NCBI GenBank assembly: GCA_027262695.1 | Contig: GCA_027262695.1_4722.1 | Direction: 5' to 3' (one strand) | Source: a phage | DNA: 64,000 nucleotides | Shown here: positions 1,415 through 56,777 of the stretch, piece after piece | Layout: each line of letters begins with the position of its first letter | How positions within the stretch are numbered: the stretch's first letter is position 1 | Notes under the pieces: model-generated | Told to the model about the DNA's origin: nothing | Database searches by the model: none | What the model saw: the letters and a program-made list of their open reading frames with translations, nothing else | Translations under genes and position numbers: made by a program

Positions 1415-1429
1415 TTAACACCCCTTAGG

Positions 1430-2314: not shown

Positions 2315-2330
2315 GTCTTTTCCTATTTAA

Positions 2331-3182: not shown

Positions 3183-3192
3183 TGTTTATTCC

Positions 3193-22303: not shown

Positions 22304-23137
22304 TTACTTAGCTTTCGGATTATACGGACTAACATGTTGCTGCATTCGTTGGATTGTTTCGTAGTACGGGTTATAATGAGTGAACATATTGTTGTATGGA
22401 TGGTAGCCGTAAAGCGCATTTTGCCTTGCCGGTGAGAAACCTTTTTGAGAAGGACGATTTGAATTTACTGCGAGCACGTAGTAAACCAAATTTTGATGGT
22501 CGAATGTTCCTTCGTTTTTGAAGGTGTCAGCATAGGCGCTTACCGCAGGAGCAAGTCTATCACCATCGGTTGTAATGATCGTACCATCCGGGTAAACTTC
22601 TCGAACGATACACCATGTTCCGATGAGAACATCTTCGGGTGTCTTATTACTGTATCCGACTGTAACGGTAAGGTAAGTATCGAATCCTCCTGAGCACTGC
22701 GGATGTCGATAAATTGGGCCAGTCGTTTCTGCTTTATCGGTTACGGTTTTTTCGTAAGGACACTTCTTGATTGCTTTGATGTAAATATCGGGAATCTCTA
22801 ATACCGCCTTATCAGGATGAATTCTAAAATGATTCTTGAGTAAGCCCAAAAGGTTGGTTGCTACCACGTCGTGAGGTAGTACCCAATAACTGGTAGGGGA
22901 GTCATCGCCGTCTCTCTTGGAGAAGATGACTGCCTTGTTATCGTCGTCTGGTAGACTGAAGAAAACGATTGACTCAATAGGCATAGCCAGCTCACCACAA
23001 CAGGGGTCAGCGGATAACACCCAATTGTATTTGTTGTCCGTTTCGTATAAATGTTCTGTTCTGTCGATACTACGATCCTTCAATTGGATGTAGCGTTCAC
23101 GTTGTTTCTTGGTTAATTTACGGTAGATAGTGGTCAT
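22304..23137 (-). CDS. hypothetical protein, paralogue family B
   Basis: 277 aa; PIYRHPQCSGGFDTYLTVTVGY and REVYPDGTIITTDG align with PIYVHPECHTTYDRYLTITGG and REIYPDGRITTFCG of the next gene. Confidence 0.6.
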   Translation of the reverse strand: MTTIYRKLTKKQRERYIQLKDRSIDRTEHLYETDNKYNWVLSADPCCGELAMPIESIVFFSLPDDDNKAVIFSKRDGDDSPTSYWVLPHDVVATNLLGLLKNHFRIHPDKAVLEIPDIYIKAIKKCPYEKTVTDKAETTGPIYRHPQCSGGFDTYLTVTVGYSNKTPEDVLIGTWCIVREVYPDGTIITTDGDRLAPAVSAYADTFKNEGTFDHQNLVYYVLAVNSNRPSQKGFSPARQNALYGYHPYNNMFTHYNPYYETIQRMQQHVSPYNPKAK

Positions 23138-23185
23138 GTTAAGCTCCTTGATTACGGTAAGGATGATTTCGGTTTTGTGATGATG

Positions 23186-23213
23186 GTAGGACCACTTTGT
23201 TTAGGATCCTACC
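23186..23213 (-). terminator. hairpin downstream of a family B gene
   Basis: ggtagga...tcctacc inverted repeat immediately 3' of the stop at 23223. Confidence 0.35.
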
Positions 23214-23222
23214 AGTACGGGA

Positions 23223-23996
23223 TTATTCATGATCAGTGTAGAAATGGTGAGGATAGCCGGAGTACGATCCTGCGTTACCGGCTATGGATTCTTTCTGGGA
23301 ATCGACGACGAGCGCGTAGAACTGTCGGGAATTTGTTAACGTTGAGAAATAAGAGGAAAGGACTTTTTCGTTCAACGCATCGCACGGTAGACAGGTACGC
23401 CCACAGAACGTCGTAATACGGCCATCCGGATAGATCTCACGGATCATACGCCATTCACCGATATCAACCGGCGATGGCGCTGCTACACCACCTGTTATCG
23501 TTAAATAACGATCATACGTGGTATGACATTCTGGATGTACGTAAATTGGCTTATTGGCCTCAACTTCTTCAGGAGCATAGCGTCGACCGAGAAGTTCAAT
23601 AACCTCCAGATAGATTGTAGGCAGATCGCAAAGAACCCCTTCCTCTTTACGTTTCTTCGTGATTCGAGGACGAACCTCATTGATAACGTAGGCGAGTTCA
23701 TTCAGCGCTTCTTGCGCTGGTAGCACGAATAAACGGTCCGGTTTGTCGGACAAGTCTTCATTTACGTAAACGTAACAAACATCGTCTTTAGGCGCGTAGA
23801 AGAAGCGAGAGACCTTAAAGGTTTCCGTAGTACGATAACCGAGACGCGTTTGGTCCTGCACCAGAGAAAATATCCAGCGACGTCCTTCGTCCTGTTCAAT
23901 GATATCATTGAACATCTTTGTTTGATCAGGAAGTTGATATTCTTCCTGTAATTTAGCAAGTGCTTCATTATCCAGTTTGGTGTAAACATCAGTCAT
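23223..23996 (-). CDS. hypothetical protein, paralogue family B
   Basis: 257 aa; see 22304-23137; N-terminus MTDVYTKL resembles MTTIYRKL and MTDIYRNT of the flanking genes. Confidence 0.6.
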   Translation of the reverse strand: MTDVYTKLDNEALAKLQEEYQLPDQTKMFNDIIEQDEGRRWIFSLVQDQTRLGYRTTETFKVSRFFYAPKDDVCYVYVNEDLSDKPDRLFVLPAQEALNELAYVINEVRPRITKKRKEEGVLCDLPTIYLEVIELLGRRYAPEEVEANKPIYVHPECHTTYDRYLTITGGVAAPSPVDIGEWRMIREIYPDGRITTFCGRTCLPCDALNEKVLSSYFSTLTNSRQFYALVVDSQKESIAGNAGSYSGYPHHFYTDHE

Positions 23997-24023
23997 GATA
24001 GTATCCTCGATTAGTAAGGTTGG

Positions 24024-24428
24024 CTAGTCTATCTTAAGCCAGATTGATGGTAAATGGAAATAGACACCGTCGTCTATTTGTTTTTGTGTTAACGGGGTTG
24101 GAAGTTTAGTGATGATGTTGTCGATCGATTCCTCAATGTCACTTGTTAGAACGTCGATGTGGTAATAGCGAGCGATGCGTCCGTTACGTTCTAGCCAAAA
24201 CAGACGAACGAAATCACTATTTTTATTAATCGCATTCATAAACACGATTTGATGAAGCAGGATCATTCTTGACGAGGGGTAATCGTCAGGACGCGGAGTC
24301 ATCACCAGTTCCCAACGTTTCCGTCGCACGCCTTTTTTGAATTGACTCGTTACATTTGAACCACTTTTACCTAAGTTTATAACAAATTGCTTTAGACGAT
24401 ACGGTGTATTTCTGTAAATATCGGTCAT
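24024..24428 (-). CDS. hypothetical protein, short family B member (N-terminal domain only)
   Basis: 134 aa; MTDIYRNT start and HLPSIWLKID match the N-terminal halves of the two larger paralogues. Confidence 0.5.
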   Translation of the reverse strand: MTDIYRNTPYRLKQFVINLGKSGSNVTSQFKKGVRRKRWELVMTPRPDDYPSSRMILLHQIVFMNAINKNSDFVRLFWLERNGRIARYYHIDVLTSDIEESIDNIITKLPTPLTQKQIDDGVYFHLPSIWLKID

Positions 24429-29853: not shown

Positions 29854-32800
29854 TTACTTGTAGGCACCGCAATGGGCTTTGATGAGGAAAAGCACCGCTT
29901 GCATCGGTTTATTGAACTGTTGCCATAACGTCAATGCCGGATGGAACAGCCAATCTTCCAGGCCAAGAACAATACCGTAGTTAACGACATTATTAACATC
30001 ATTCTCAACGTTGAGTTCACTGTCCAGGAATTTGTCGATGGAACGCAGGGTCTGCATGGCGTTATCAGCGATAAGCCAAGCTTCATGCGCTTCCCGAGCT
30101 GCACGCAGCAGTGCTTCCAGTTCGCTGGTGCTGGCAACCGGCAACTCTTCGCTGATGAGATCATCGGACACCGTGAAGCTACGGTTGATACCGGTATAGA
30201 TCCACTGCATCAGTTTCGCTGCTTCCTCGTTCGGGTTGTTGCGCGTTGTCGCATAGGTCGCGCTCATCTTCACGATATGCGTTTCACCAAGATACGCTTT
30301 GGACCCAACGCCTTTACGATCGCTGTCTTTCCACGGTTGTACGGCAGCAACCATAAGCTTATCCCATTTCTGAATAGGAATACGCTTCAGACCAACAACC
30401 GATCCGGCGGATGTTTCGGACTGGTTGCTCTTCCGCACGTCGCTGAGTTCACGATCGATAGCAACGATTAATTCACGCGTCATGTTACCAAGCATTTTGA
30501 TTTCACCCAACGCAGCGATGAGCTTCTTCACATCGGTAACAGGTTCACCACCGATGGTAAGATGACGGATGAAACGTTTCAGAATAATCCGTTCTGCTGC
30601 TGGGTTGCCGCGACGCGCTTTAGCCAATGCTTGCTGCGTTTCGGCGAACAGCTTATCCCATGGAGCCGTAGCGGCGGTATAGTAACGGTGGTTGGTTTCA
30701 ATCCAGTTACCGATACGGTTGACCGCGCTCTTAACGGTATCCATGAATCCTTCCATCGCAATTTCGGTAGCTTCGACGTTACCCTGGAAGTTATCAGGAC
30801 CGATCTCACGTGCCGCTACCAGAATACCTTCCACCGCGCTCACCGCATGACGACCGATAGCCAGATTTCGCTGCGCTTCTTCAGCACGCTCAACGAATTC
30901 CACTACCGCAGGATCGTCAACGATTTCCGCCTCAGCAACAACACGAGTACCAGCATCGCCTTCCAGTGTCTCGATGGTGACAACCGGATCGTTTTCACCG
31001 GCAACATCCTGATACTCTTCCTGTTTGAGATCACCGTTATCAGCCGCTGCGACAGCGGTGAGTATACGAACGGTGACATCGCCCAGTTCTTTTGCAGCGA
31101 ATCCGTAAACAGTACATGCGGTCGTTGCAAAGTTCATCAGGGTGCGTGTGCGCTGCGTGGTGTAACGTGCGCCTGATTCGTTTTCCACTTTGTCGAGATC
31201 ACGGAGTAACTGCTCAGCCGTCTCCTGAAGTTGAGTAGCTGCTTTCAGGAGGTCTTCGTCGAACAGTTTTGTTGACGCATCGATCAGCATTTCAACGCTA
31301 ACGTTGGACGGTACAGCATCATCCTGTTGTTTCATGGTGCTAAGTTCGTCACGGAACTCACGAATACCGTTTAACGCATCGTCGATGGAATACCCGAACG
31401 CTTTCACACCCGCCATTCCAAGAGCCGCTTTCATTTCACCCGGATGCTGAACTTGCTCGCCTTCCTTGCTGTTCTTTAACTCATCGAAATATTTCTTCGA
31501 CGCGTCCGCAATACGTTTACTGTCTTTGACCGCGTTTACGATCTTATCGACAGATTTAGCATCGTTTGCGAGCAGAGTATCCAGTTTATTCCACTCAACG
31601 TCAACCTTCTTGGCATCGCTTGGTGGTGGAAGCAGTTTCATCACTGGTGTTGTGCGTTGTTCTTTGGTGAGCTTATCGGCCTTCTCATCGATTTTCTTTT
31701 TACTAACACCGAAGAGTTTTCTTAGGCGTGCCACGATTGCTTTTAAGAACTTCGCGACCGCTTCGTAAACCGATTTCAGAATCTGTTTAAAGCGACCTGG
31801 CTGCTTTTCCCCGTCTTCCAGATTGAGATCGCTATTCAGTGCGACATCAAGCTGTTTGTACGATTCCATGATGTATTCGTCTTTGATTTCAGGACGAATC
31901 TCGAAGCTTTCCATCGGACCTTCAGCCGGACGGAATTCCATTTTCAGTTCGCCTTGCAGAGTAGGGTCGACAATGGCGATCGCTTCACCCTGACCATCAG
32001 CGTTAAAGCGTTCAGCGTAACGAGTACGACGAACAATAACACTCTTATCCCCCTCAAGACGACGGACCACCATGGTGCCAGGAATGTACGGTTGTTCTGT
32101 TTCGATGACGGTTACATCTGCCTCACCTTCGCCGAGAATAACCGATGCACGCTGTTCAACAACAGGAACATCTAATACGCCACGTGCTTCCAGCTCTTGA
32201 TGAATTTCGAACGACTCTTGTTTCAGATCTTCATCTTCTTCGTTTTCGTCTTCATCACCGTCACCTTTGGTGTCTTCATTACCCTCGGTGGTTTTGGTGT
32301 CGGTAGCATCAGCGTCGGCGTCTGTGTTGGTAGGTTCTTCGGACGCGGGTTCGGTGGTGCTATCCTCGGTGGACGTTTCGTCGGCGTTATCGACGTCAAC
32401 ATCACCTTGCAGCTCCGTTTCTTGAGCAACGGCGTCGGCTTTCTGCTCACCAGTATTGCCGTCATTAGCGTCGACAACAGGTTGTTCGTCAGCGACGGTA
32501 TCTTCAACCTTTTCTACTTTCTCCACAACACGTTTAATCACGGTGACTTTGATGGGTTCTTCCGTCGTTTTGGTTTCTGGCGTCGCCTCGGCTACCTCAG
32601 CTGCTGTTTCAGCAACAGGTTCTGCTTTTTCCGGTTCGACGACATTGCCTTTAACACCTTCGGTGGTTTCTGCAGGTTGCGTCGCCTGTTCGATTTGTGC
32701 CGGATTGGTTGGATCGATGGCGTTAGCCGCATCCTGAATCTTGTTCTTCAGGTTGTCACGGTCAGCGTTAACGGTCGGATCATTGGTCACTTTCGGTGCC

Positions 32801-33228
32801 GGTGTTTCGGTCGGTGCGTTTGCTGGATATGGGTTCTTCGGCTCTTCACCAGGTGCGGTCGGTACGGCGATCAGCACGAACGGCTGCACGTCGTTACCGT
32901 CTTCCATGGTAACGCCACCGTTGCTCGGTGTGAAACGAATTCGTAAACTACCATCGATAGGACGGGTCACAATAACAGCACGTACGACATCCTCGCCGTT
33001 CTCATCCGTGCTACGAATTACGCGAACGGCATCATCAACAGTAGCCCCTTCCTCGAGCGTATCTGATTCGATCGTCGCTTCGATGCTGTCTGGCCGTGCC
33101 GCTGTAGGTAATGCGATCACCTGCTCTTCTTTATCAGTAGAAAGCGTTGCTTTGACTTCGATCGGTGTATCGCCGCTTTCCAGGTTAAGATGCGACTTAC
33201 GCATCAGATCAGCTAACGATTTTTTCAT
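29854..33228 (-). CDS. large protein of paralogue family C with acidic low-complexity N-terminal half
   Basis: 1124 aa; Asp/Glu/Thr-rich region (EDENEEDEDLKQE); amphipathic helix ILKSVYEAVAKFLKAIVARLRKLF matches the family C signature. Confidence 0.6.
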   Translation of the reverse strand: MKKSLADLMRKSHLNLESGDTPIEVKATLSTDKEEQVIALPTAARPDSIEATIESDTLEEGATVDDAVRVIRSTDENGEDVVRAVIVTRPIDGSLRIRFTPSNGGVTMEDGNDVQPFVLIAVPTAPGEEPKNPYPANAPTETPAPKVTNDPTVNADRDNLKNKIQDAANAIDPTNPAQIEQATQPAETTEGVKGNVVEPEKAEPVAETAAEVAEATPETKTTEEPIKVTVIKRVVEKVEKVEDTVADEQPVVDANDGNTGEQKADAVAQETELQGDVDVDNADETSTEDSTTEPASEEPTNTDADADATDTKTTEGNEDTKGDGDEDENEEDEDLKQESFEIHQELEARGVLDVPVVEQRASVILGEGEADVTVIETEQPYIPGTMVVRRLEGDKSVIVRRTRYAERFNADGQGEAIAIVDPTLQGELKMEFRPAEGPMESFEIRPEIKDEYIMESYKQLDVALNSDLNLEDGEKQPGRFKQILKSVYEAVAKFLKAIVARLRKLFGVSKKKIDEKADKLTKEQRTTPVMKLLPPPSDAKKVDVEWNKLDTLLANDAKSVDKIVNAVKDSKRIADASKKYFDELKNSKEGEQVQHPGEMKAALGMAGVKAFGYSIDDALNGIREFRDELSTMKQQDDAVPSNVSVEMLIDASTKLFDEDLLKAATQLQETAEQLLRDLDKVENESGARYTTQRTRTLMNFATTACTVYGFAAKELGDVTVRILTAVAAADNGDLKQEEYQDVAGENDPVVTIETLEGDAGTRVVAEAEIVDDPAVVEFVERAEEAQRNLAIGRHAVSAVEGILVAAREIGPDNFQGNVEATEIAMEGFMDTVKSAVNRIGNWIETNHRYYTAATAPWDKLFAETQQALAKARRGNPAAERIILKRFIRHLTIGGEPVTDVKKLIAALGEIKMLGNMTRELIVAIDRELSDVRKSNQSETSAGSVVGLKRIPIQKWDKLMVAAVQPWKDSDRKGVGSKAYLGETHIVKMSATYATTRNNPNEEAAKLMQWIYTGINRSFTVSDDLISEELPVASTSELEALLRAAREAHEAWLIADNAMQTLRSIDKFLDSELNVENDVNNVVNYGIVLGLEDWLFHPALTLWQQFNKPMQAVLFLIKAHCGAYK

Positions 33229-33243
33229 AAAGCGTTATTCCTC

Positions 33244-34413
33244 TTAAAAGTAATATTTCAGCGCCTCGCGAGAGACATCAAGCATAGCCGCTGTTGAATT
33301 CGTAAAGAACTCGGCATAGCCCACAAGCGGCACCTTGATCCACGCGGTATACGCTGTAAGGTATCGAGAAAGGGCTACCATAGCATCATCAGAAGCAGTA
33401 GCAACTGACAACTGACCTTGTTGACGATAAACGTCGTTAAGTTTTGCTTGTAGATTCCCTGCGATTTCGAGTAACTCGTTGGCGTACTTTTTACGATGGT
33501 AACTAACCAGCAAATCAACACCCGTATTTACAGACTCGAGTAGCACACCAACTTGTTCTAATGTTGGCATTGTAACCACCATATCCCGTTCAACTGACGG
33601 TATATCCTGGACTTCAAACCGTGCGGATTGAATGGCGAGGGACTGTTGAATTGAACCGGAACCTGAGGCGGTAACCTGATCGAGTCGCAGCATACGGTTG
33701 CCCAGTAACGTTACGTTGGCGAGTTTCGATTCGTTCAGCGTACTGTAGACTTTATGCAATAACGTATACGCATCACGGTTAATCACATCGATTAATGCGG
33801 TATCCGTCTGTTTTAAGATAATGTCGAGCGCTCTATCTAACGTATTAGCGAACTGCTTGAAATCATCACGGAACGACGAAGACAAGAGATATTCAGCGAT
33901 CGCTAAATTCTGCTTGTATAACGTATTCCCGGTGGTGAAATCGAACCCAAAACTGTTCCCATACCGTAGGTGTGGGGCCAGCGTCGACGAAGCTTCGAAG
34001 CTTTGCGCGATAGGTTTACGACCAACGGCTTTTGTGTAATGGCGGCGGATGTTACTGAGTTCGAGTTGTAGTGCGCGACTACGATCGATAAACCGTGCGA
34101 TAAACGCGGTAATGTTCCGCAACGTTGTCCAGATTGCATCGATGATGGCTTTGATGATTTTCATCGCAAGCTGATTGTACGATTCCATCGTGAGGAGATC
34201 AGCACTTTCTGTGGTATAACTGGTTGCCAGCATCCCGCCCGCTTGCTGATAAATAAGCTGGTGAATTTGTCGTTGCGTTGCTGTCTCTGGTACAGGTAAT
34301 GTCTTTAACAAGCTTAACGCTTGAATCTGTCCGTCATAGGTCTGCAGCATTGCTGGTTTCCTCAAGTTCGAGATGCGCGTCAAGATAATCATTAAGACCA
34401 TCGATGACGTCAC
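33244..34413 (-). CDS. paralogue family C protein
   Basis: up to 389 aa, true start possibly the internal Met near 34350; AIWTTLRNITAFIARFIDR helix motif. Confidence 0.55.
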   Translation of the reverse strand: MTSSMVLMIILTRISNLRKPAMLQTYDGQIQALSLLKTLPVPETATQRQIHQLIYQQAGGMLATSYTTESADLLTMESYNQLAMKIIKAIIDAIWTTLRNITAFIARFIDRSRALQLELSNIRRHYTKAVGRKPIAQSFEASSTLAPHLRYGNSFGFDFTTGNTLYKQNLAIAEYLLSSSFRDDFKQFANTLDRALDIILKQTDTALIDVINRDAYTLLHKVYSTLNESKLANVTLLGNRMLRLDQVTASGSGSIQQSLAIQSARFEVQDIPSVERDMVVTMPTLEQVGVLLESVNTGVDLLVSYHRKKYANELLEIAGNLQAKLNDVYRQQGQLSVATASDDAMVALSRYLTAYTAWIKVPLVGYAEFFTNSTAAMLDVSREALKYYF

Positions 34414-35635
34414 AGACAGTTAACAGGAATCGGGCAAAAGCAACCGCCTGGAAGCCGACGACGTTACGCGCGATACCCACACGTTGAACGATAGCGGATG
34501 CTGCGGTATCGTTGTTGTCCATCTGTTGTAGCAAACGTTCATACGGTTGAATCCATTCGTCCTGGTCGGCAAGGCTTGCTTCAAGACAACGTTTAAATTC
34601 CAACTGTCGTAGCGTAGACCATAACGTACTTAATGCGCTGATGATCGCGTTGGTTCCGTCGATAACATCGTTTAACGGCAAGAAACGGAATCCGTCTTTT
34701 GCTGATTGGAAAGGTACAGCTTCCCATACAACACTGAACTGCGTTCCTGATGCGTCTTCGATGTTGTGTAATTTAAGATAGGAAGCACCAACAGGTACGT
34801 CAACGACCAGATCGTCTGTTCCGGTAGGCGTTAACGGCTTCTCGCATAACGCCTCGTTGATGACCTCGAGAATATTCTCCCAACAGGCCTCGTTTTCCGC
34901 AGCGATACCTTCTTTGTTATCCGCTGATGGTGCTTTTAGTAGCTGCATTAATAACGGATCAAGTTGACGATGCCATGCTGCGAGGATTCCTGTGTTCGTT
35001 ACGATGTTTTCTGCGGTTTGTCGTAAATCAGCAATACTGCTTACCGCACCGCCTTTCGGATGAAGATATCGCCAGTTGTAGGGAAAGTTCTCCCAGAATG
35101 CGTTATCTTCATCGACGTCGTATTCGGAAATATTTTTCAACGCAGCCGCTTTCTTTAATAGCGGCTTCACCTGACGAACGAATCGACGATAACAACGATT
35201 ACAGATATCGATCGCATAGCGATACAATTCGTTCATGTAAAGCCATAACGCCCGGGTTGCTTCTTTCGCGGTTTTGTCAAAACTTTCCATGTTTAGGCTC
35301 ATTCCGTTGGAAGTTTCCTCTTCCATCCCATCGATGATCTGATTGGGATCCATTCCCATCCCAGCCGCTGCGGTTGAAGCGATATGTTTAATCGTGCTGA
35401 TATCACGTTCTTCAACTTCGGTCATGTTAGGGACAATATCTAACCGGAGTTTATTTAATGTTTGAAGGTGCTGTTCACCTTCCTTCATGACGGCGTTCGT
35501 TTCATCGAGTGAGTGAAGCTGATTTTCGATATTACCGACATCGAGAATGTTTCCAGCGATACCGAATGATTCTACAGGTTCATCATCTATCCCTTGAAAC
35601 AACGCGGTCATGGGTTGTTGCAACACGTTTTCCAT
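34334..35635 (-). CDS. paralogue family C protein
   Basis: 433 aa; IKHIASTAAAGMGM and ALWLYMNELYRYAID motifs shared with 35791-37083. Confidence 0.6.
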   Translation of the reverse strand: MENVLQQPMTALFQGIDDEPVESFGIAGNILDVGNIENQLHSLDETNAVMKEGEQHLQTLNKLRLDIVPNMTEVEERDISTIKHIASTAAAGMGMDPNQIIDGMEEETSNGMSLNMESFDKTAKEATRALWLYMNELYRYAIDICNRCYRRFVRQVKPLLKKAAALKNISEYDVDEDNAFWENFPYNWRYLHPKGGAVSSIADLRQTAENIVTNTGILAAWHRQLDPLLMQLLKAPSADNKEGIAAENEACWENILEVINEALCEKPLTPTGTDDLVVDVPVGASYLKLHNIEDASGTQFSVVWEAVPFQSAKDGFRFLPLNDVIDGTNAIISALSTLWSTLRQLEFKRCLEASLADQDEWIQPYERLLQQMDNNDTAASAIVQRVGIARNVVGFQAVAFARFLLTVCDVIDGLNDYLDAHLELEETSNAADL

Positions 35636-35660
35636 TTAGGACTCCTACGTAGGAAAGATC

Positions 35661-35684
35661 ATGGTGGGTGATCATGTCCACCAT
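35661..35684 (-). other. hairpin in the 5' leader of the 34334-35635 gene
   Basis: atggtgg-gtgatcatgt-ccaccat inverted repeat 26-50 nt upstream of the start; a second hairpin (tatgaagc...gcttcata) follows at 35692-35712. Confidence 0.35.
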
Positions 35685-35750
35685 TGTGCGTGGTATGAAG
35701 CGTGGCTTCATACCCAAGTCAAAAGATAACCGGTCATCAACACCATAAAA

Positions 35751-35782
35751 CCCTCCTCCAACCCATTAGGGAAGGAGGAGGG
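35751..35782. terminator. conserved GC-rich hairpin (family copy 6)
   Basis: ccctcctcc-aaccc-atta-ggg-aa-ggaggaggg between the co-directional family C genes. Confidence 0.6.
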
Positions 35783-35790
35783 TGCTTATC

Positions 35791-37083
35791 TTATTTTGCT
35801 TTCTCGGTTACCGCGTCGAAGTATTTTGCGGCAGCGAAGACAGCTTCGGCGTACTGGCGCACCGACAGACGAAGTATTTTCGTGGAGATGGTCATGCCTT
35901 GACGTGCCATTTCTGAAACCGCTGCGATGTACGGACGTATGGTCTCTCGATCCACTTCCGGCATTCTATCGAGTATATCACCCCATTTTGATTTAATTTT
36001 CATGCCAACTAATTTCGCGGTGCGTTCTAGCGTATTTGCCAGCATTTCAACTTCGCTATGATAAGTCGGCGGTACCTTATAAAACACCCCGAGGTATCCT
36101 GTCAAGCCGGTTTCCAGATCCTTCTCATTTTTGAAAATGTTCGGATCGGTAATATCACCTGAACTGACGTCGGCTAGTTCGATAGTAATCTGTTTCACCA
36201 ATTCACAAGCCTTTATTGGGTCGCTTTCTTTTACGACCGCATCAATGCCTTTAACGACGATATGTTTCCCGGCACTTTCAGGCGCATCAAAACGTTTCAG
36301 CGAGACCCTGATGGCTTCGAGGTATTTTACCAGAATAGCATCAAGGGAAGAGATATTTGTCAGTTTTTCCAGTTCACCGTTCAGGATGGCGATATCGCTC
36401 AGGAAATCACTGGAGGAGACCGCCATCTGCGCAAGCTGGCCAATATGCACACCCATGATGTACGCGTTTGCTGATTTCGCGTTCGGGAACATCGTGAGCA
36501 TGTTGTCGGTAGGCTTCTCGATTTGCTTCAGTTTACGTTTGCCGTCCTTCACGTCATCTGCAATATCGTGGATTTTATTGTAAGCATACATCAGATTCTT
36601 GAACAACATCTTGAAGAATTTGAAAAGCGCCTCGGCGATATTAGCGATAATAATCCATACCGCATAGAGCGCTTGCGCCGCACGTTCCTTAAACCCTTCC
36701 AGCACGATGGCTTGCCCTTCGACTAACTTGTCGTTAGCCTGGAACATGTCTTCATCAGACATACCCAGATTAGCTGCCGATGTTGATGCGATTTGGCGGA
36801 TAAGCGCAACGTCGCTGGCGCGGGCTTCTGTGATCGTTGGTGCAATTACATAGGCGGTGTCTTCCAATGTTGCTGCAGTGCGCAAAGCGATTTCAGCCAG
36901 TTCGCTGTTCTCATCGATGCTGTCGTCGGTGTGACGAATCACCAGCTCAACTTCATCTTCCTCAATTTCTGCGTTAGGATCTTGTTGCTCGGGTGAAATC
37001 GATGCAAGAACATCTTCAGCGCTGAGTAAGGCGAGTTCGAAAGCGTTTTTATTGATGTTATCAAAAAGAGAAATCCGGGCCAT
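35791..37083 (-). CDS. paralogue family C protein
   Basis: 430 aa; acidic N-terminus; LIRQIASTSAANLGMSDEDMF and AVWIIIANIAEALFKFF. Confidence 0.6.
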   Translation of the reverse strand: MARISLFDNINKNAFELALLSAEDVLASISPEQQDPNAEIEEDEVELVIRHTDDSIDENSELAEIALRTAATLEDTAYVIAPTITEARASDVALIRQIASTSAANLGMSDEDMFQANDKLVEGQAIVLEGFKERAAQALYAVWIIIANIAEALFKFFKMLFKNLMYAYNKIHDIADDVKDGKRKLKQIEKPTDNMLTMFPNAKSANAYIMGVHIGQLAQMAVSSSDFLSDIAILNGELEKLTNISSLDAILVKYLEAIRVSLKRFDAPESAGKHIVVKGIDAVVKESDPIKACELVKQITIELADVSSGDITDPNIFKNEKDLETGLTGYLGVFYKVPPTYHSEVEMLANTLERTAKLVGMKIKSKWGDILDRMPEVDRETIRPYIAAVSEMARQGMTISTKILRLSVRQYAEAVFAAAKYFDAVTEKAK

Positions 37084-37092
37084 ATGGGTTCC

Positions 37093-38436
37093 TTAACCTT
37101 TAGTGTAGGCTTTAACGAGGGTGTTAATAAAAGAAGTTAGTGCACGAAGGTACTGATAAGCGAATTGGTTTTCAATACGTTGCTCTTTACTGCAAAGCAT
37201 GATCGCCCGTTTCACCAGTTTAGGATATATTTCAACGTACGGTTTATAACTGTCGTCGTATTGCTGCGTATCGAAATTTTTCATGGCTTCATACTGCAGC
37301 TTTTCCATCTGACGAACACGAGCACGATCGAAGATCTTGGAGAACGCACGTCCGCGTTGGGTGATTGCAATCAGATCTTTCGCTAATGAAAGCGGTTTAA
37401 CGCTACGGAAATCATCCGGTGTGGGTAACGTGTAGTTTTCTGGATCGCTATTCCATTCGGTCACCGCATCTTCAACCACAACATCCAATTTCAGATAATT
37501 TTCAATCGCAGCAAGAACGTTGTCTTTTGCTGCATTGAATTCTTTTAAGAACACAGCAGCATTAACATAACGAATACGTTTACCAGAAACCGCCGGTGTA
37601 ACTACGTCACTCCCGTCGACGGAACCTCTGTTCTCCAACGCGGTTTTCAATGTATCCAGAAACGACATGTAGTCCACAGGAAGTTGGTCAACACGATCTA
37701 AACGAAAATCGAATGTCTTCACACCAAGACCGGTGGTAAGGTCGTAACGTGCACCGCCCGCCATGATTCGGTTGTAGTTCTCAAGGTTCTTCTTAATTTC
37801 GTCAACACCACCGACATGATTGCGATTGGAGAAGAGGATACGCCAACCGGCTTTAAACGGCACGGTAACCGTTTCTTCTTTACCTTTCGGAAGGTTTTCT
37901 AGCGCTTTGATCGCATTCTGGAAATTGCGGGTTTCATCATAGATGATCCGTGTTAATCCTTCCAGGACAGCAGCCAGTTGCAGAACAATATCAACAATGA
38001 TATCCCAGATCTTTTTCAACGCTCGAACTACGGTGTCTTTGAACCCTTCAACAACCAACGCTTCGCCAACGGCGATGTTGTCGGTAGGACGAAGCATCGC
38101 ATCGGAAGGTAAACCTAAAGCAATTGAAGCGGATTCTTGAACGTTACGTACCAGTGCAACGTCACTGTAATTAGCCGTCTCAATCGTTGGTGCAACATCA
38201 AAACTGATTTCTCGTAATGCTTCAACAGCGGGGAAAGCACGATCGAGTGCCTCCTCATGTTCATCGATGTTCGCTAAACGGAGTTCAACGCCATCGGCGT
38301 CAATGACTTCGGTGGTAGGTTCTACGGCAAGCGCCTCGGCAACGATGGGATCCTTCTCAAAAGCTTCAAGGCTGATATCACCTTGTGTAGCAAATAGTGG
38401 TATACGTACCATGTGATGTCTCCAGTAATAATTCAA
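37093..38436 (-). CDS. paralogue family C protein
   Basis: 447 aa; LVRNVQESASIALGLPSDAML and EGFKDTVVRALKKIWDIIVDI. Confidence 0.6.
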   Translation of the reverse strand: MNYYWRHHMVRIPLFATQGDISLEAFEKDPIVAEALAVEPTTEVIDADGVELRLANIDEHEEALDRAFPAVEALREISFDVAPTIETANYSDVALVRNVQESASIALGLPSDAMLRPTDNIAVGEALVVEGFKDTVVRALKKIWDIIVDIVLQLAAVLEGLTRIIYDETRNFQNAIKALENLPKGKEETVTVPFKAGWRILFSNRNHVGGVDEIKKNLENYNRIMAGGARYDLTTGLGVKTFDFRLDRVDQLPVDYMSFLDTLKTALENRGSVDGSDVVTPAVSGKRIRYVNAAVFLKEFNAAKDNVLAAIENYLKLDVVVEDAVTEWNSDPENYTLPTPDDFRSVKPLSLAKDLIAITQRGRAFSKIFDRARVRQMEKLQYEAMKNFDTQQYDDSYKPYVEIYPKLVKRAIMLCSKEQRIENQFAYQYLRALTSFINTLVKAYTKG

Positions 38437-38460
38437 AAGATAAATCAGAGCAGCATAGAA

Positions 38461-38494
38461 CCCTCTCCCTTCCCTGACGGGTTGGGAGAGGGAA
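38461..38494. terminator. conserved GC-rich hairpin (family copy 7, inverted orientation)
   Basis: ccctctccc-tt-ccc-tgac-ggg-tt-gggagaggg, the reverse-complement orientation of the other copies. Confidence 0.55.
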
Positions 38495-38514
38495 TATGTC
38501 AGTTTGCTAACTGA

Positions 38515-39846
38515 TTATTTCTGTGCTGCGTCAGCCGGTTTTTCAGCCGCCTGGCCGCCGTACTCTTTCAGCATTTTAGCAACGCCGTCCAGTACTGCGT
38601 TACCCGCCTGAACACCGTACTTCATCAGGCTAACCTGCGGGTTGATGTAGCAAGAACGTGCGTCTTTCAGTGCAGACAGCACAGTTTTAACACGCTGTTT
38701 CTCTTGAGCAGAAACTTCGCCTTTCTTAGCCAGTTCAGCTTCCATATCGTCGCCGAATTTAACAGCGTCTTTGAAGCCCTGGGATTTCTTACCGATGTTA
38801 CCTTTCGCAGCCAGCAGTTTATCGGCCAGCGCTTCAACGCTGTTGATCACCGCAGCCATCTGGTTCGGGGACAGTACATCGGCTTCCTGTTCCATCACGG
38901 TGATTGCGTTATTGCCGCGTTCCCAGGTCACTTTACCGTCGGTGGTTTTGAATCCCCAACCGTTCGGACCTTTCACATCAGCGATCGCAGGCGCGTTCAG
39001 TTTGTCGGTGTACTCAGTATGTGATTTAGACTTAACGAGTTCAACGAATTTATCCGCACGATCGTCAGCCGCCTTCATTGCTTTCTCGAAGGTATCTGCG
39101 ATTTTGCTTGATGCACCAGCGATATCGATATCGCCAATATAACCGGTAACAGTGGTGCCCAGTTTAACTTTCGCGTTCTTCGGAGAGCCTTTACGTTTGG
39201 CGATCATTTCTTTCAGTTTAGCCGCACGTGCTTTCAGCTTGGTTGCACCGTCGAAGATACGATCGATGAACTTCACGAAGTTGTCCCAGGTGGATTTCAG
39301 GAAGTTCTTAATTGCAGTCCACAGTTTCTGCCACCATTTCTGTTCTTCCAGGAAGATCATGTTGGTTGCATCATAACGGGAAGCGGAACCGCCGAAGCTT
39401 TCGAAGGAAGGCATGGTTTCCGGCAGTTTGAAGCCGATAGTACCACACAGACGTTTCAGATTACGCATGTGTTCTTGCGCGGTCTGTGCAGACATACCAC
39501 CGTCTTTCAGATAGCTTTCGGTCGCAACAACGGTTTCCGTCATTTCGTCCATGGCTTCGTCCATGGCTTCAGCGGTTTCGTCGTCTTTTGCGATTTCGAT
39601 AACAACAGCATCAACCTGCTCGATGTCACCACGGACTTCGATAGCCAGTTCGGTTTCAGCAGCGGTGTCTTCAGCGATTTCAGCACGTTCGGTCAGTTCA
39701 GCCACAACGGTTTCATCGCCTGCAGCAGCATCGGCTGCCGGTTCTGCTTCAACGGTTGCCGCAGCTTCCGGATCGATCTCAGCAGCCAGTTGAACCAGCT
39801 GTGCGTTAGATGGATTTGCGACAAGACGATCAAAAATAGAAGGCAT
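38515..39846 (-). CDS. highly expressed paralogue family C protein (abundant virion, scaffold or internal head protein candidate)
   Basis: 443 aa; strongly optimised codon usage like the putative capsid gene; acidic Ala/Glu-rich N-terminus; KLWTAIKNFLKSTWDNFVKFIDRIF family helix; tgtaaagga-N8-ATG initiation region identical in layout to the capsid gene. Confidence 0.5.
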   Translation of the reverse strand: MPSIFDRLVANPSNAQLVQLAAEIDPEAAATVEAEPAADAAAGDETVVAELTERAEIAEDTAAETELAIEVRGDIEQVDAVVIEIAKDDETAEAMDEAMDEMTETVVATESYLKDGGMSAQTAQEHMRNLKRLCGTIGFKLPETMPSFESFGGSASRYDATNMIFLEEQKWWQKLWTAIKNFLKSTWDNFVKFIDRIFDGATKLKARAAKLKEMIAKRKGSPKNAKVKLGTTVTGYIGDIDIAGASSKIADTFEKAMKAADDRADKFVELVKSKSHTEYTDKLNAPAIADVKGPNGWGFKTTDGKVTWERGNNAITVMEQEADVLSPNQMAAVINSVEALADKLLAAKGNIGKKSQGFKDAVKFGDDMEAELAKKGEVSAQEKQRVKTVLSALKDARSCYINPQVSLMKYGVQAGNAVLDGVAKMLKEYGGQAAEKPADAAQK

Positions 39847-39887: not shown

Positions 39888-39914
39888 GCTTAAGCAAGCT
39901 GTAATCTTGCTTAA
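39888..39914 (-). terminator. hairpin overlapping the stop of the 39911-40441 gene
   Basis: gcttaagcaag-ctgtaat-cttgcttaa inverted repeat. Confidence 0.35.
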
Positions 39915-40441
39915 AAGCCCTTAAAACCCGGTGCCATAGGTTGCCCAAACACCGCATTTAAAGTACATATGATGTCCTGGATGCCATTGTCCCAATGGAG
40001 CCAAGTACGCACCATCTCTTCGTCTGACAACGTGATATAACTCATAAGTTTACCGCTGCTTTCCAGACGTTGGTGTGAACTTAACGACTGACGATCTGAC
40101 CAGTTATCGATCAGCTGTCCGGCAATCTGAACGTTCGTGTCCCGTCGACCCGTGTGAATGAACCGTAATGTATCACGGATAAACTCCAGGCTCGCGAAGT
40201 TCAGGTTGGGGTTATGGCTGTTCATTTCCACCCAATCGGTGATGGGGTACATCAAACGATAAAGGGTAGAAAGTACCTGACGTTCATATTTCCAGTCATC
40301 CAGAGGAGTACCATCGACCAGACGCTGATACAAACTTACCACGTCACGGTCGTAGTTCTCCTGCCGCTTTACACCGTTAACCGGAAATCCGAAGAACCCG
40401 GTACCGTATAACGTTAAAGGGACGTCACGAAGTGCATTCAT
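39911..40441 (-). CDS. hypothetical protein
   Basis: 176 aa ORF; 4 nt overlap with the upstream gene. Confidence 0.55.
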   Translation of the reverse strand: MNALRDVPLTLYGTGFFGFPVNGVKRQENYDRDVVSLYQRLVDGTPLDDWKYERQVLSTLYRLMYPITDWVEMNSHNPNLNFASLEFIRDTLRFIHTGRRDTNVQIAGQLIDNWSDRQSLSSHQRLESSGKLMSYITLSDEEMVRTWLHWDNGIQDIICTLNAVFGQPMAPGFKGF

Positions 40442-46780: not shown

Positions 46781-49700
46781 TTATCTTACGTTATTGCTAT
46801 TCTGCTGTTCACTGAACCAACCATAGACTTTGAGATCGGTACCGTATCTCAGTGCAAGGTATGCGTTCATCGCAGCACAGAACAACGTCGCGTAGTGCCA
46901 TAAGAGCTCAACATCCATGTCATCGGGAGTCTTGGTAAAACCAGCACCTGGTACAAAGCGTGACGGTTCATGCATGAACGTGCGGTACCAGTCGTGCTGT
47001 TGTTGTTTCGTCGTGAAATCACGGTGTGGTTCTAACGCTTCTCTTGCAAGACGACGATACTCGAGAAGATGATGATTAGCCCGATTATCGCGAGGGTAGC
47101 TTACTTCGTAGTTAGGATCGACAGCTTGGCATAACGCTGTTGAGTCTAATAACTCGATGGCTTTGACTAACTTATCGCTCGCGTTGGTGATGAGCGCCGA
47201 TCTGTAATACTCGATCGAATTAGCAAGTTGCGAATAGAAGTCATCTAAGGCATCTGGATTTGATACCTGCAGATCAAGACCTAATGTCCACGGATAGCTG
47301 CTTTCATCATTGAGTTGCGGTACGACACCCAGGAGATGTTGGCAGATAGCTGCGTGATTATTGAACTGATCGTGGAAAATAGCTCGTGCAACTTCAATCG
47401 CATGATGATAACTCAAACGCCGTTCCTGACGTGTCGTCCTAAATGAGTTAACGGCGAGCAGTCCCGCGGTAGCCGCGCAAACATCAGTGTCGTTGACGTT
47501 GTTAAGCACATAGTTACTAAGCTGGAAAGATTCTTGCTTCAACGTTCCATTGGTCGCCGTTGCTTCGCTATTCGCTTTATCAACGATGGTGCTTAGCGCG
47601 TTAATATAACGTTTAGCGCGAACTTCCAACCACTGTGCGATCCCAAGCACATCCACAGCCGCTTTAGCAAGGTCACGTGCGTTCACGATTTCGTTCTTCA
47701 ATGCACCCAGCCCTTTATTTTCAGGCGAGGAGGCTTGTTGTCGAATCATGCTGTTTAACATCGTAAGCAGGTTATCCAGCTCGTGTCCGCTGACCTTGTT
47801 ACGTGCGTCAGTAATCGGCCCTTGCAGGAATTTACGACAACCGTCATTATACCGAATCAGTTTATCCACATCGATGGATTCGTTCGTGGTTTCCTTGAAC
47901 TGATTCTTTAATTCTTCACGGTAGTCGTGTATCTCGCTTGTAAGATTATCAACGGTGATACCATTGTGACCAAGAAGAACTTTACTGAAGTTGCCCTTCT
48001 CGAACGCCAGTGCGATGCCTTCACGAATCTTAGCCAGTTTATCCTGATCTAATTCACGACCGTTTGACAGTTCTTTCACTTCAGCACTGATTATTGCTGC
48101 AACCGTTCCAAGGTTATCGGTAACCCCTTTGAACGTGCTTGACCAAACACTTCCCGCTTCAGCGTATTTTGCGATGGTCTGGATACCGACGCTATGTAAC
48201 GACGCTAAACGTTTCTTCGTACCTTCGGTAAGCAATGCATCTTTAGCTCGCGTAAGTTGACTGTTATTGGCTTCCGCTTGCTGGATGGCCGCTTTCGCAT
48301 TCCCGTTACGCCAGCTCTTAACCAACCAATCGACCAAACGTTTCAGGATGTTGATGGTATATTCCATCGTACGTCGTAACGTTTCCCATGCGCTTTCAGC
48401 GGTATAGATCCCACCAACAGTGTACCCTTCCATCTTCAGCGCTTTGGTATCGGTTTGACGTGCCAACCATTCTACCGTCGCAGAACAAACGTTTACGAAC
48501 GCCTCCAGGTAGTTGTAATAGACCTCTGTTGCGGAGGTTTCGTTGAGCTTGGAATGCAGATAAAACTGTTCGTATAGCTCGTCGTCATCACCGAAGGCGT
48601 CGTAGTTCCACAGTTCGGTATCGCAGCCGGTACCACAGAAGACATCCGCCGTTGTAAACTCCTTAAGTGCTTTCGTTGCGTCGTTGGTCAGGAATTTACC
48701 TGTCTCAAGTACGTCGTCAACATTAAGTCTCGGGAGTTCGTCAGTAATTGGGTTTTCCAGCATCAACGTATTGAAGAACACGCTGTACTTGTATCCAAGC
48801 CATTTTGGATAACTGTTTTCAGATATCGTAGACGCCGGTTTGATTTTCTTGGCTTCAGCCAACGTGTCTTCTGCAACCTGATATTGGTTTTCCCCAGCTT
48901 TGATACGTCGTAATGCTTTTTCTTCCAACTGTTTGAGTTTGTTGTGCCGTGCTTGAGCTGGAGCCTCAACCAGTTTTTGTACCGACCGCATGGCGGAAAT
49001 CGCTTCTTTCAATGTGGTGATCGGCATACGAACTTTACCGTCATCGAAACTCAGCGCGCGAGCAATACGTCGACTTACAACAGGTTCGGTATGGATGTTT
49101 CTTTCTACCCACGATTTGTTTGCGTAGGTTTGCGTGATTTGCTGCTGGATCTTTTCAAGATAGCCCCAGCTTTTGGATGCTTTGCCGTCCAAAAGCGGAT
49201 TAGGTCCTTTCTTATCAAAAAGCTTTTTGATAGGATCAAAGAAACCTTCTTGCACGAGATCGATACGGGTGTAACCATCAGCTGCTTCGATTTCTTCTTG
49301 GGTTTTATCCCAGAAGTCGTCGCTCTTTGCAGCAACCGCTGTATCTTTAATGTCCAGGATGATCTGACCCACCGTTTGCGCAAACAGCAAGGCCGCACGT
49401 ACCGATTGTGCGAACATCCGCTGATATTTGATTCGAACGCATTGCATCTGGGTTAGCAGATTCAGTTGCGCGATCCCATCCAAGGTGCTATCTTGAGCAA
49501 GTCCTTCAGCCTTAGCGATAACCTGTTTTACACGTTCAGCGACATCAACGTATTGCTGGCATACATCCCGCAGAATACGTGCTGCGAAGACCCCGGTACC
49601 GATATAGTTCAACAGGTCTTTTAATGACCATTCAGACGGACAATCGGCTGGTGCGGTAGGGAGTAAGCAACCATCACCGTCCATGAATCGCTCTAATGCA

Positions 49701-50386
49701 CTAATATCCTGATTTTCTACTCTCATGGGGATATCAGCATCAGCGGCTTGCAGATCCAGCATCTGTTGTAGGATGTTGGTATCGGTTTGCACAAGCGTCG
49801 CAAGCGCTTGGCTGTGTGCGATTATTGGTAACGCTGGTGACCATACTGCAGCAAGCTTGTCGGCGTGACGTTGAATGGCATACCCCATATCCTCGATCAC
49901 GTCAGGATGCTCGATAACCCCCTGAAGCGTTTGATGCAGCTCACCGAGTTGTTGAGACAGATAGACCATCATGGCGTTGAAGGTTTCGCCATCCTCTTTG
50001 TGGTTGTCCAGACGCTCAAGTTCATGTTGAAGCAATGCGACGAGCTGTCCGTTGCCTTCTTGCTTCAGCTTGCTTTCCATTAACGTAATGGCTTTATCGA
50101 CGATCTGACGCGCTTCACGAAAACCGGTTGTGGAAGGAAGCTCTGTCCATAACGCCAGCGGTTTACCGTCAAGGGCTTCCGGCATCGATAACGAAAGCAT
50201 AGTCAGTTGTTGGCGTGATACTTGCTGTTCACGGTGTAATGTTTCTTTTAACGCCAGGAGATCGTCAAGAAACGCGCCGTTAAGGGCGGTCGTACGCGGT
50301 GTTGAATTAATACCGTCAGTTAATGATTCAAGCACCAGGAGACCGTTATCAGCTGAAGAGAGTCCCGCGGCAAGATATTTGTTCAT
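46781..50386 (-). CDS. very large hypothetical protein (possible virion protein)
   Basis: 1201 aa ORF, largely helical by composition; contains ILKRLVDWLVKSW helix reminiscent of family C. Confidence 0.6.
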   Translation of the reverse strand: MNKYLAAGLSSADNGLLVLESLTDGINSTPRTTALNGAFLDDLLALKETLHREQQVSRQQLTMLSLSMPEALDGKPLALWTELPSTTGFREARQIVDKAITLMESKLKQEGNGQLVALLQHELERLDNHKEDGETFNAMMVYLSQQLGELHQTLQGVIEHPDVIEDMGYAIQRHADKLAAVWSPALPIIAHSQALATLVQTDTNILQQMLDLQAADADIPMRVENQDISALERFMDGDGCLLPTAPADCPSEWSLKDLLNYIGTGVFAARILRDVCQQYVDVAERVKQVIAKAEGLAQDSTLDGIAQLNLLTQMQCVRIKYQRMFAQSVRAALLFAQTVGQIILDIKDTAVAAKSDDFWDKTQEEIEAADGYTRIDLVQEGFFDPIKKLFDKKGPNPLLDGKASKSWGYLEKIQQQITQTYANKSWVERNIHTEPVVSRRIARALSFDDGKVRMPITTLKEAISAMRSVQKLVEAPAQARHNKLKQLEEKALRRIKAGENQYQVAEDTLAEAKKIKPASTISENSYPKWLGYKYSVFFNTLMLENPITDELPRLNVDDVLETGKFLTNDATKALKEFTTADVFCGTGCDTELWNYDAFGDDDELYEQFYLHSKLNETSATEVYYNYLEAFVNVCSATVEWLARQTDTKALKMEGYTVGGIYTAESAWETLRRTMEYTINILKRLVDWLVKSWRNGNAKAAIQQAEANNSQLTRAKDALLTEGTKKRLASLHSVGIQTIAKYAEAGSVWSSTFKGVTDNLGTVAAIISAEVKELSNGRELDQDKLAKIREGIALAFEKGNFSKVLLGHNGITVDNLTSEIHDYREELKNQFKETTNESIDVDKLIRYNDGCRKFLQGPITDARNKVSGHELDNLLTMLNSMIRQQASSPENKGLGALKNEIVNARDLAKAAVDVLGIAQWLEVRAKRYINALSTIVDKANSEATATNGTLKQESFQLSNYVLNNVNDTDVCAATAGLLAVNSFRTTRQERRLSYHHAIEVARAIFHDQFNNHAAICQHLLGVVPQLNDESSYPWTLGLDLQVSNPDALDDFYSQLANSIEYYRSALITNASDKLVKAIELLDSTALCQAVDPNYEVSYPRDNRANHHLLEYRRLAREALEPHRDFTTKQQQHDWYRTFMHEPSRFVPGAGFTKTPDDMDVELLWHYATLFCAAMNAYLALRYGTDLKVYGWFSEQQNSNNVR

Positions 50387-56710: not shown

Positions 56711-56777
56711 GAAAGAAGTCGGTTAAGTTTTACTTCCTTATTCGATATGTATGATACTAAACGAGTAAGGAGTTGAT

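Follow-up and report, generated by a model that had tools for sequence, protein, structure and literature searches.

The stretch of phage DNA analysed here (64,000 nucleotides; NCBI GenBank assembly GCA_027262695.1, contig GCA_027262695.1_4722.1; hereafter the window) carries, between positions 29854 and 39846, six consecutive minus-strand genes that very probably constitute an array of PF12699 genes ("phiKZ-like phage internal head proteins"), orthologous to gp58 to gp53 of Escherichia phage vB_EcoM_Goslar and syntenic with gp92 to gp97 of phiKZ. The 10-kb array region is 91.5% identical at the nucleotide level to Goslar (MK327938), spanning Goslar_00053 to Goslar_00058, every one of which is annotated in that record as "hypothetical protein"; order, strand and sizes of the genes are alike, and the amino acid identities are 65-98%. 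On these sequence grounds, each of the six genes has its orthologue among Goslar gp58 to gp53, and the window belongs to a Goslar-like giant phage, Goslar being a nucleus-forming E. coli jumbo phage of the Chimalliviridae (a chimallivirus). An earlier account made from the letters and open reading frames (ORFs) of the window, the sequence-only reading, had placed six minus-strand ORFs at these coordinates, treated them as a 'family C' particular to the window and likened them by analogy to proteolytically processed jumbo-phage proteins of the internal-head or ejection kind. All six ORFs were found; the analogy has turned into a real family match (by Pfam, PHROG and fold matches, synteny with phiKZ, and detection of the orthologues in Goslar virions), and the supposed window-specific family is the known PF12699 family.

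Genes are named here by the length of their ORFs in residues, and all lie on the minus strand. The array begins with g443 (38515-39846), the orthologue of gp58, which is the dominant PF12699 internal head or ejection protein and comprises an acidic N part (residues 1-149) ending at a candidate cleavage site, Site 1 (PSFE149|SFG), followed by a basic C-domain of 294 residues. Next come g447 (ORF to 38436), the gp57 orthologue, a low-copy PF12699 paralogue of allele type A; g430 (35791-37083), the gp56 orthologue, another low-copy paralogue, more variable than any other array gene; g433 (34334-35635), the gp55 orthologue, a low-copy paralogue with an acidic C-domain (isoelectric point, pI, 4.7); g389 (ORF to 34413), the gp54 orthologue, with an N part of 56 residues, the motif TME|SY and a Trp helix; and g1124 (29854-33228), the gp53 orthologue, in which an acidic N part of 826 residues precedes a C-domain of 298 residues. 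Four of the gene lengths in the sequence-only reading were kept, but 389 and 447 residues are those of maximal ORFs, not of the likely genes: agreement with Goslar gp54, Goslar gp57 and other relatives suggests that the former most likely starts at M22 (368 residues, 33244-34350; g368) and the latter at M9 (439 residues, 37093-38412; g439).

Paralogy of the six proteins, as claimed in the sequence-only reading, is borne out by pairwise BLASTP for three pairs, g430-g447 (1e-17), g433-g430 (2e-8) and g433-g447 (8e-8), all within the N-terminal ~150 residues; among the six, no significant pair involved g443, g389 or g1124, and for these profiles were needed. With Pfam, PF12699 scored 69.9 bits for g443 and 28.6 bits for g447 (curated gathering cut-off, 27 bits), and 21.2 bits, below the cut-off, for g389; the PF12699 scan gave no match for g430, g433 or g1124, in agreement with precomputed Pfam results on the orthologues. 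In the PHROG search, g443 alone of the six had matches, to PHROGs 5750 and 2497 ("internal head protein"). The predominance of non-significant BLASTP pairs and the three proteins without a Pfam match are what would be expected if these were unrelated helical or acidic proteins with a signature arising from compositional chance, and helical proteins are indeed prone to spurious profile matches.

Profile comparisons speak against such a chance resemblance. A jackhmmer-style iteration from g443 (Z = 100,000) was run over 190 proteins of comparison loci, i.e. the regions 3' of the gp91-like gene in phiKZ, PhiPA3, PhiEaH1, Moabite, PCH45, KpLz-2_45, LucasX and Noxifer, and in a 43%-identical metagenomic relative. 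It converged on 42 proteins, including phiKZ gp92-97, PhiPA3 gp95-102 and other equivalents, as well as g443, g368, g430 and g439, each with E <= 1e-4 at first inclusion (1.5e-7 for g368 and 5.5e-7 for g439); the family tie of g433 runs via BLASTP to g430 and g447. A second profile, built from other phages and excluding any window or Goslar-clade sequence (the external-only profile), was compared with all 49 window proteins, the top eight of which were exactly the six array genes plus genes of 933 and 1201 residues located elsewhere in the window; the other big window proteins (826-997 residues) all rank under those eight. When orthologue alignments were compared with this profile, hhalign gave probabilities of 99.8% for g443, 95.4% for g368 (over the C-domain), 88.6% for g430, 83.9% for g1124 (E 7.7e-6, on residues 810-869) and 56.9% for g433. 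An independent hidden Markov model (HMM) of 92 columns, representing the N-terminal core of the family (N-core), returned the same top eight, with 48.4 bits for g443 and 20.0 bits for g430; each beats at least 299 of 300 decoys that had been block-shuffled with preservation of local composition (300 of 300 in the case of g433), and all matches fall on the same profile columns.

At the level of fold, an AlphaFold 2 (AF2) model of g443 (predicted template modelling score, 0.61; predicted local distance difference test, pLDDT, 70-90 across residues ~90-430) gave 110 matches in BFVD at E <= 1e-3 (best E 1e-14 to 1e-7; template modelling (TM) score up to 0.68). The described top matches are from phiKZ-like or other jumbo phages (201phi2-1, PhiPA3, PhiEaH1, RAY, Noxifer, RSF1 and RP12), several being named as internal-head or virion structural proteins. 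Searching the PDB with the same model gave nothing significant (the best match, at E 0.04, is a ClyA-family toxin), an attempt to deepen the g443 alignment by profile search yielded no new distant homologues, and tblastn of g443 against a phage collection returned Goslar, one weak Pseudomonas phage match and nothing else. The shared fold was computed in this analysis for g443 alone and is taken, for gp53-57, from published AlphaFold 3 models. The agreement of two profiles on the same eight proteins, the decoy comparisons, the strongly positive fold search and the retained phiKZ synteny together mean that an origin of the signature in composition is already largely refuted, and we regard it as extremely improbable.

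The layout of the locus is that of phiKZ, in which six genes in a row, gp92 to gp97, come after gp91 and the last of them is the largest. Here, the gene at 39911-40441 (minus strand) encodes the orthologue of Goslar gp59 and phiKZ gp91, a vertex-binding protein (Pfam PF25618 at 2.1e-46); every chimallivirus examined has a gp91-like gene directly upstream of its array, and this gene with a downstream array was seen in eight annotated chimalliviruses and in eight relatives from metagenomes. Membership of PF12699 and synteny are matters of observation. Family and fold are shared with phiKZ gp92-97, gp162 and gp163, as is the six-gene array 3' of a gp91 homologue with its largest gene last, whereas sequence identity between the phiKZ and window proteins is below ~20%.

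Biology of this kind has already been described for the Goslar orthologues, and our finding is, in this sense, correct but not new. A preprint of April 2026 by Basu et al. (bioRxiv 10.64898/2026.04.21.720040) reports a cryogenic electron microscopy (cryoEM) structure and label-free mass spectrometry (MS) of Goslar virions. It states that gp53 and gp58 carry PF12699, that AlphaFold 3 gives the same fold for gp54-57, that gp53-58 and phiKZ gp92-97 lie in synteny, that injection of gp58 had been shown earlier, and that the virion contains ~2150 copies of gp58, ~330 of gp53, ~70 of gp54, ~50 of gp55, ~60 of gp56 and ~50 of gp57. The sections of the preprint consulted here contain no analysis of where cleavage occurs, of the N-core motif, of codon bias or of diversity among alleles, and the paper on Avs5 and jumbo phages makes no mention of these proteins. 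The HMM searches and virion MS that the sequence-only reading had proposed as checks have, in effect, already been done for the orthologues, both with positive results, and neither an absence from virions nor a complete lack of significant pairwise similarity was found. There are differences from phiKZ: several phiKZ members are present at ~100-200 copies each, whereas Goslar-type phages have one dominant member, and phiKZ has an inner body, by definition a visible cylindrical proteinaceous body within the packaged DNA, whereas, according to the preprint, none is observed in Goslar.

The signature of the sequence-only reading, EGF followed by a Trp-containing amphipathic helix, corresponds on alignment to the conserved N-core of PF12699 proteins, although the family alignment indicates that it fuses two neighbouring Glu sites. 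The parts of the N-core are a helix, two sites that each contain Glu, and a long Trp-bearing amphipathic helix. Site 1 has the form P-[SA]-x-E|[SND]-[YF]-G, and Site 2, ~20 residues further on, the form [SA]-x-E|[GD]-[LIF]-K, after which the amphipathic helix begins at once; Site 2 reads VLE|GF in g430, VVE|GF in g447, TME|SY in g389 and AME826|GF in g1124. In g443 the N-core extends over residues 119-211 (39214-39492), with the helix, Site 1 (P146-S-F-E|S-F-G152), Site 2 (FLE|EQ) and the Trp amphipathic helix; that of g430 (residues 93-166; 36586-36807) includes VLE129|GF and the Trp helix, and that of g439 (residues 119-154 from M9; 37951-38058) VVE|GFKD and the Trp helix. The corresponding element of g1124 (residues 814-845; 30694-30789) reads FQG-NVEATEIAME826|GFMDTVKSAVNRIGNWIE and is a better family match than the helix listed for this protein in the sequence-only reading (ILKSVYEAVAKFLKAIV), which lacks a Trp; the listed helices are otherwise present and amphipathic. 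An acidic N-terminus, as had been noted, is found in five of the six proteins (pI 4.05-4.4, net charge -17 to -82), but not in g389/368, where the 56 residues have a net charge of -3.

In relatives at 40-45% identity, P146-S-F-E-S-F-G152 and E167-E-Q..W..W176 of g443 are invariant, whereas the C-domain varies. The AF2 model of g443 places Site 1 in a loop (residues 138-153) just before a 64-residue helix (residues 154-217), and its N-terminal 76 residues are predicted to be disordered and are extremely acidic. From the six proteins, a cut at the motif would leave C-domains of 294, 317, 301, 316, 312 and 298 residues, all of them basic except that of g433.

These features suggest a maturation route in which the proteins would be made late in infection, the first gene being expressed far above the rest, and would be incorporated into the prohead, with the N-core lying between a disordered, strongly acidic N part and a helix-rich, mostly basic C-domain of ~300 residues. 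The prohead protease would cut after Glu in or near the N-core, by homology with phiKZ gp93 and gp162 and with the ejection proteins of SPN3US, and the C-domain would stay in the head with the DNA and be ejected with the genome into the early-infection vesicle of the host. Within this scheme we infer where cleavage occurs, that the N part serves in packaging and that the five low-copy members are injected.

Precedents for such a route exist in three systems. In phiKZ, the PF12699 paralogues are proteolysed during packaging; gp90, 92, 93, 95 and 97 are injected, and gp89 and gp162 stay within the head. The Salmonella phage SPN3US has abundant paralogous head proteins (the E proteins gp53 and gp54; prohead protease gp245) with N-terminal propeptides of 125 and 137 residues, which are removed after A-x-E with a preference for Ser at P1', and which are fragmented and incompletely cleared. 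The logic is the same, and the propeptide lengths are similar to the 117-149 residues in the window, the two being likened by description; SPN3US, unlike the Goslar clade, is not a nucleus-forming phage. Internal proteins IPI-III of T4 are packed in the head core, cut after Glu by the prohead protease gp21 and injected with the DNA, and IPI* is an anti-restriction effector; these proteins are small, with a capsid-targeting sequence of ~10 residues, and stand in functional analogy only to the window proteins, with no known relation in sequence or fold. For the phiKZ protease, S/A/G-x-E is reportedly the consensus.

With respect to the position of the cut, in our own alignment and residue count Site 1 aligns with A83-L84-E85|N86 of phiKZ gp93, and the cryoEM model of the capsid-bound arm of gp93 stops at residue 84 (phiKZ cleavage sites are as quoted in Yang 2024). 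One Glu site of the N-core thus probably matches the gp93 cleavage point, a position that fits Glu-specific prohead proteases. The MS data for Goslar virions are mixed and only in part consistent with removal of the N part, the results being those for the peptides listed (alphabetically A to ELK). The N-region peptides of gp58 have areas of only 4,880 and 9,180 against a total gp58 area of 1.08e7, the major capsid protein (MCP) being similarly abundant; for gp56, the N-region peptide is absent among the peptides listed and a C-domain peptide has an area of 31,600. The control behaves as it should: peptides of the MCP propeptide are likewise absent from those listed, against areas of 84,000-570,000 for peptides of the mature MCP. 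None of the Goslar peptides listed is a semi-specific peptide defining a cut.

Several observations weigh against parts of this scheme. Proteolytic processing of these six proteins is something that we only infer, and a Goslar gp53 peptide across IME|SY is readily detected (area 17,600), and one across AME|GF is detected at trace level (area 541); the long gp53 N-region is retained in virions (area 79,000), and the N-region peptide of gp55 is no weaker than a C-domain peptide. At Site 2, the P3 residue in the Goslar paralogues is V, T, N or F and differs from the S, A or G of the reported phiKZ consensus. We rejected E[GS][FY] as a motif for the prohead protease in general: at the MCP boundary, near residue 157, the sequence is GCE|SEE, the motif of the sequence-only reading fuses two sites, and Goslar virions contain a peptide that runs across IME|SY. 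For g1124, which is without a Pfam match, only the N-core is detected by sequence, and AF2 of residues 440-1124 (13 close orthologues) was unusable (mean pLDDT 44). Among gp53-58, injection is reported for gp58 alone, which, like gp60 and gp61, has been tested as a GFP fusion, and no inner body is seen in Goslar micrographs or reconstructions; these proteins are therefore not filed here as inner-body proteins. Overall, we give the exact cut sites proposed for the six proteins an even chance of being correct.

Another possible function is that the proteins are mainly cement or scaffold of the capsid wall, their C-domains being by-products. Residues 14-84 of phiKZ gp93 and 19-134 of gp162 are bound between hexons at the inner capsid surface, with the helix-rich C-domains released; the N-terminal ~150 residues are the best-conserved part of gp56, gp57 and gp58 across the clade, and a true wall protein, gp65, shares the N-core. 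In the Goslar capsid model, however, as described in the preprint sections consulted, the components are MCP, gp146, gp77 and the vertex complex, and none is a PF12699 chain; the N-region peptides of gp58 are weak in virions, the acidic N-terminus of g443 is predicted to be disordered, and the gp58 C-domain is present at ~2150 copies, gp58 having been shown, according to the preprint, to be injected. A mainly structural role in the wall thus appears unlikely, and packaging of the C-domains within the head remains our preferred interpretation.

The capsid-level codon bias that the sequence-only reading ascribed only to the last member, g443, was confirmed by the codon adaptation index (CAI). 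On the E. coli scale, two of 49 genes stand out, those for the major capsid protein (0.742) and g443 (0.693); the next-highest value is that of g1124 (0.424), the remaining genes being at 0.23-0.42 and the orthologues of the low-copy gp54-57 at 0.23-0.35. Sharp-Li weights were used, and the absolute values are approximate; a capsid-referenced index ranks the genes alike. The ranking of g443 and g1124 agrees with the copy numbers of Goslar gp58 and gp53, and codon adaptation of g443 is, like family membership, observed directly. Directly 3' of the g443 stop, folding of the 90-nucleotide intergenic region (38425-38514, minus strand) revealed a GC hairpin at 38454-38498 (-33.8 kcal/mol for the region, z = -4.8; none of 200 shuffles was as stable). 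It is possible that this hairpin acts as an attenuator or terminator that separates the high expression of g443 from that of the downstream low-copy paralogues.

The low-copy members differ markedly in their conservation. Between the window and Goslar, protein identity is 65% for gp56, 72% for gp57 and 87% for gp58, compared with 94-99% for flanking virion genes; synonymous divergence (dS) is saturated at ~2.0 for gp56 and gp57, compared with 0.14-0.26 for gp41, gp50, gp53, gp54, gp55 and gp59, whereas the ratio of nonsynonymous to synonymous divergence (dN/dS) for the two is 0.10-0.13. Alleles were compared in nine Goslar-clade genomes (loci L001, L004 and L014-L019; window positions 35791-38412), in all of which the six-gene array is intact and in the same order; the metagenomic relative at 43% identity keeps five array genes. 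For gp57 there are two allele types, ~71% identical between and 93-99% within types, and for gp56 at least five, with 65-81% identity between types. The gp56 and gp57 types are reassorted relative to one another and to gp58, and the variation lies in the C-domains (54-77% identity per 50-residue bin), the first ~150 residues being 90-95% identical and flanking virion genes 95-99%. The sequence divergence of gp56 and gp57 points to allele replacement, not rapid drift, and fits a conserved packaging or processing module joined to a variable, possibly host-interacting, C-domain.

These comparisons also address the idea that gp54-57 are decaying or redundant duplicates without a role of their own, kept by linkage to gp58. 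Their low CAI, their ~50-70 copies per virion in Goslar and their high sequence divergence would be consistent with redundancy, as would the tolerance of phiKZ orf92, 93, 96, 162 and 163 to transposon insertions. Yet the six genes persist intact and in order across the nine genomes, and five of them at 43% identity; the dN/dS values indicate purifying selection within alleles that are discrete and reassorted; and all low-copy members are, according to the preprint, still packaged into virions. We consider redundancy quite unlikely and favour retained, though diversified, packaged proteins. A more speculative proposal, somewhat unlikely but worth stating, is that the acidic N part and the core with its Glu sites and Trp helix form a general module for head packing and protease release (in the PF12699 paralogues and, diverged, in the capsid-interior proteins gp65 and gp64), with the C-domains of gp56 and gp57 being exchangeable injected cargo.

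Contigs of 236-250 kb bearing Goslar-clade proteins were also found in metagenomes and inside numerous 'genome' assemblies of Salmonella enterica, E. coli and Shigella, which suggests that the contigs in isolate assemblies are carrier-state or contaminating jumbo-phage genomes.

The product of g1124 occupies the position of phiKZ gp97 as the last and largest gene of the array. Its 298-residue C-domain is nearly invariant across orthologues, and an exhaustive search of 1.84 billion representatives with the C-module found only 3 clusters (50% identity), none of them with a Pfam domain or bridging to phiKZ gp97. BFVD matches to the AF2 model of g1124 were tape-measure-like with a TM score of ~0.1 and, being meaningless, were discarded. 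With regard to the idea that the protein is a fusion of two modules, module A (residues 430-760) matches the family at the helix only (10.5%), and comparison of modules A and B revealed no similarity. A further motif, D-L-K-[QT]-E|[GS]-[FY], occurs several times per protein in g1124 (residues 330-460) and in P0164 and P0165, distant relatives at 29-30% identity; these repeats in the acidic N extension may be internal processing sites. Separately, a semi-specific peptide in Goslar virions begins right after PMESF (EIRPEIKDEYIMESYK).

The sequence-only reading had extended the EGF/Trp-helix signature to the 933-residue gene at 50446-53247 (minus strand), and the motif there is real, beating 300 of 300 decoys, but the homology signal is weak. 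The gene is the orthologue of Goslar gp65 (89% identical, with a full-length match to PDB 11fg/11mk, 'PVC protein gp65'), which, according to the Goslar preprint, belongs to the capsid vertex-binding complex and is homologous to phiKZ gp86 (bioRxiv 10.64898/2026.04.21.720040). Its N-core-like element, at residues 114-159 (52771-52908), is weak; in the Pfam scan the protein was not a member of PF12699, and it ranked 5 of 49 by hhalign with the external-only profile, falling to 8.5% when orthologue alignments were used. The 1201-residue gene (46781-50386, minus strand), the orthologue of Goslar gp64, has a similarly weak element at residues 664-703 (48278-48397), and reached 1% in the latter comparison. 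In the composite PDB entry 36za, the gp65 chain begins with KKVWELIKRIW, i.e. at window residue 135, 14 residues after VQE120|GF, and order begins with the Trp helix; residue 158 is the first of the MCP chain in that entry, which shows that 36za lists modelled ranges only. In phiKZ, gp86 undergoes cleavage close to where its modelled part starts, and in the iterative profile the Moabite protein in the gp86 position joined at 5e-7 and phiKZ gp86 reached 1.2e-4. Possibly, then, gp65 and gp64 share an N-terminal module with PF12699 proteins rather than being family members. The gp64 orthologue has 1201 residues here and 930 in Goslar, an insertion of ~271 residues, and has no Pfam match; the window, L004, L014, L016, L018 and L019 have the long form, and Goslar, L015 and L017 the short one. 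Chain C7 of 36za has the sequence of Goslar gp65 from residue 134 to residue 934 but bears the label 'Inner-peripheral baseplate spoke gp32', which looks like a labelling error, either in the deposited entry or in the copy used here.

Three other loci of the window were observed in passing. At 509-1414, 2331-3182 and 3193-4128 (minus strand) lie three DUF7941 paralogues, around a DUF7208 gene (1430-2314); by position, these appear to be Goslar gp31, gp33 and gp34, which are listed as DUF7941 proteins in the preprint (bioRxiv 10.64898/2026.04.21.720040), and gp32 (baseplate spoke), respectively. The region 509-4128 is thus a second tandem paralogue family of virion proteins. Between the orthologues of gp46 and gp48, at 22304-24428 (minus strand), there are three ORFs (277, 257 and 134 residues) where Goslar has the 62-residue gp47 alone; a Pfam scan of the 277- and 257-residue ORFs gave no match, and the three may be an inserted accessory block. 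On the plus strand, a homing-endonuclease-like gene with HNH_3 and NUMOD1 domains (56778-57884) lies directly 3' of a 499-residue ORF that is orthologous to the Goslar DNA-polymerase exonuclease-domain gene (gp68), which suggests a split or invaded polymerase locus (55211-57884).

The overall results confirm the PF12699 family in a relative of Goslar and leave the existing picture of the family unchanged. PF12699 proteins are among the most abundant non-shell parts of chimallivirus virions and enter the host with the genome, and their role is, in the words of the Goslar preprint, a key unsolved mystery. The practical gains are a defined N-core with candidate cleavage sites and a uniform boundary for constructs of the ~300-residue C-domain. 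If the non-significant likeness of the g443 model to ClyA-type pore-forming toxins were real, it would suggest a membrane role in formation of the early-infection vesicle. Should the C-domains of gp56 and gp57 indeed be exchangeable cargo, their discrete, recombining alleles would fit host-specific effectors or host-sensing targets, as in the delivery of phiKZ gp184/Tad1. The natural swaps of gp56 and gp57 alleles in an otherwise isogenic background may be used to test host-specific functions of these C-domains.

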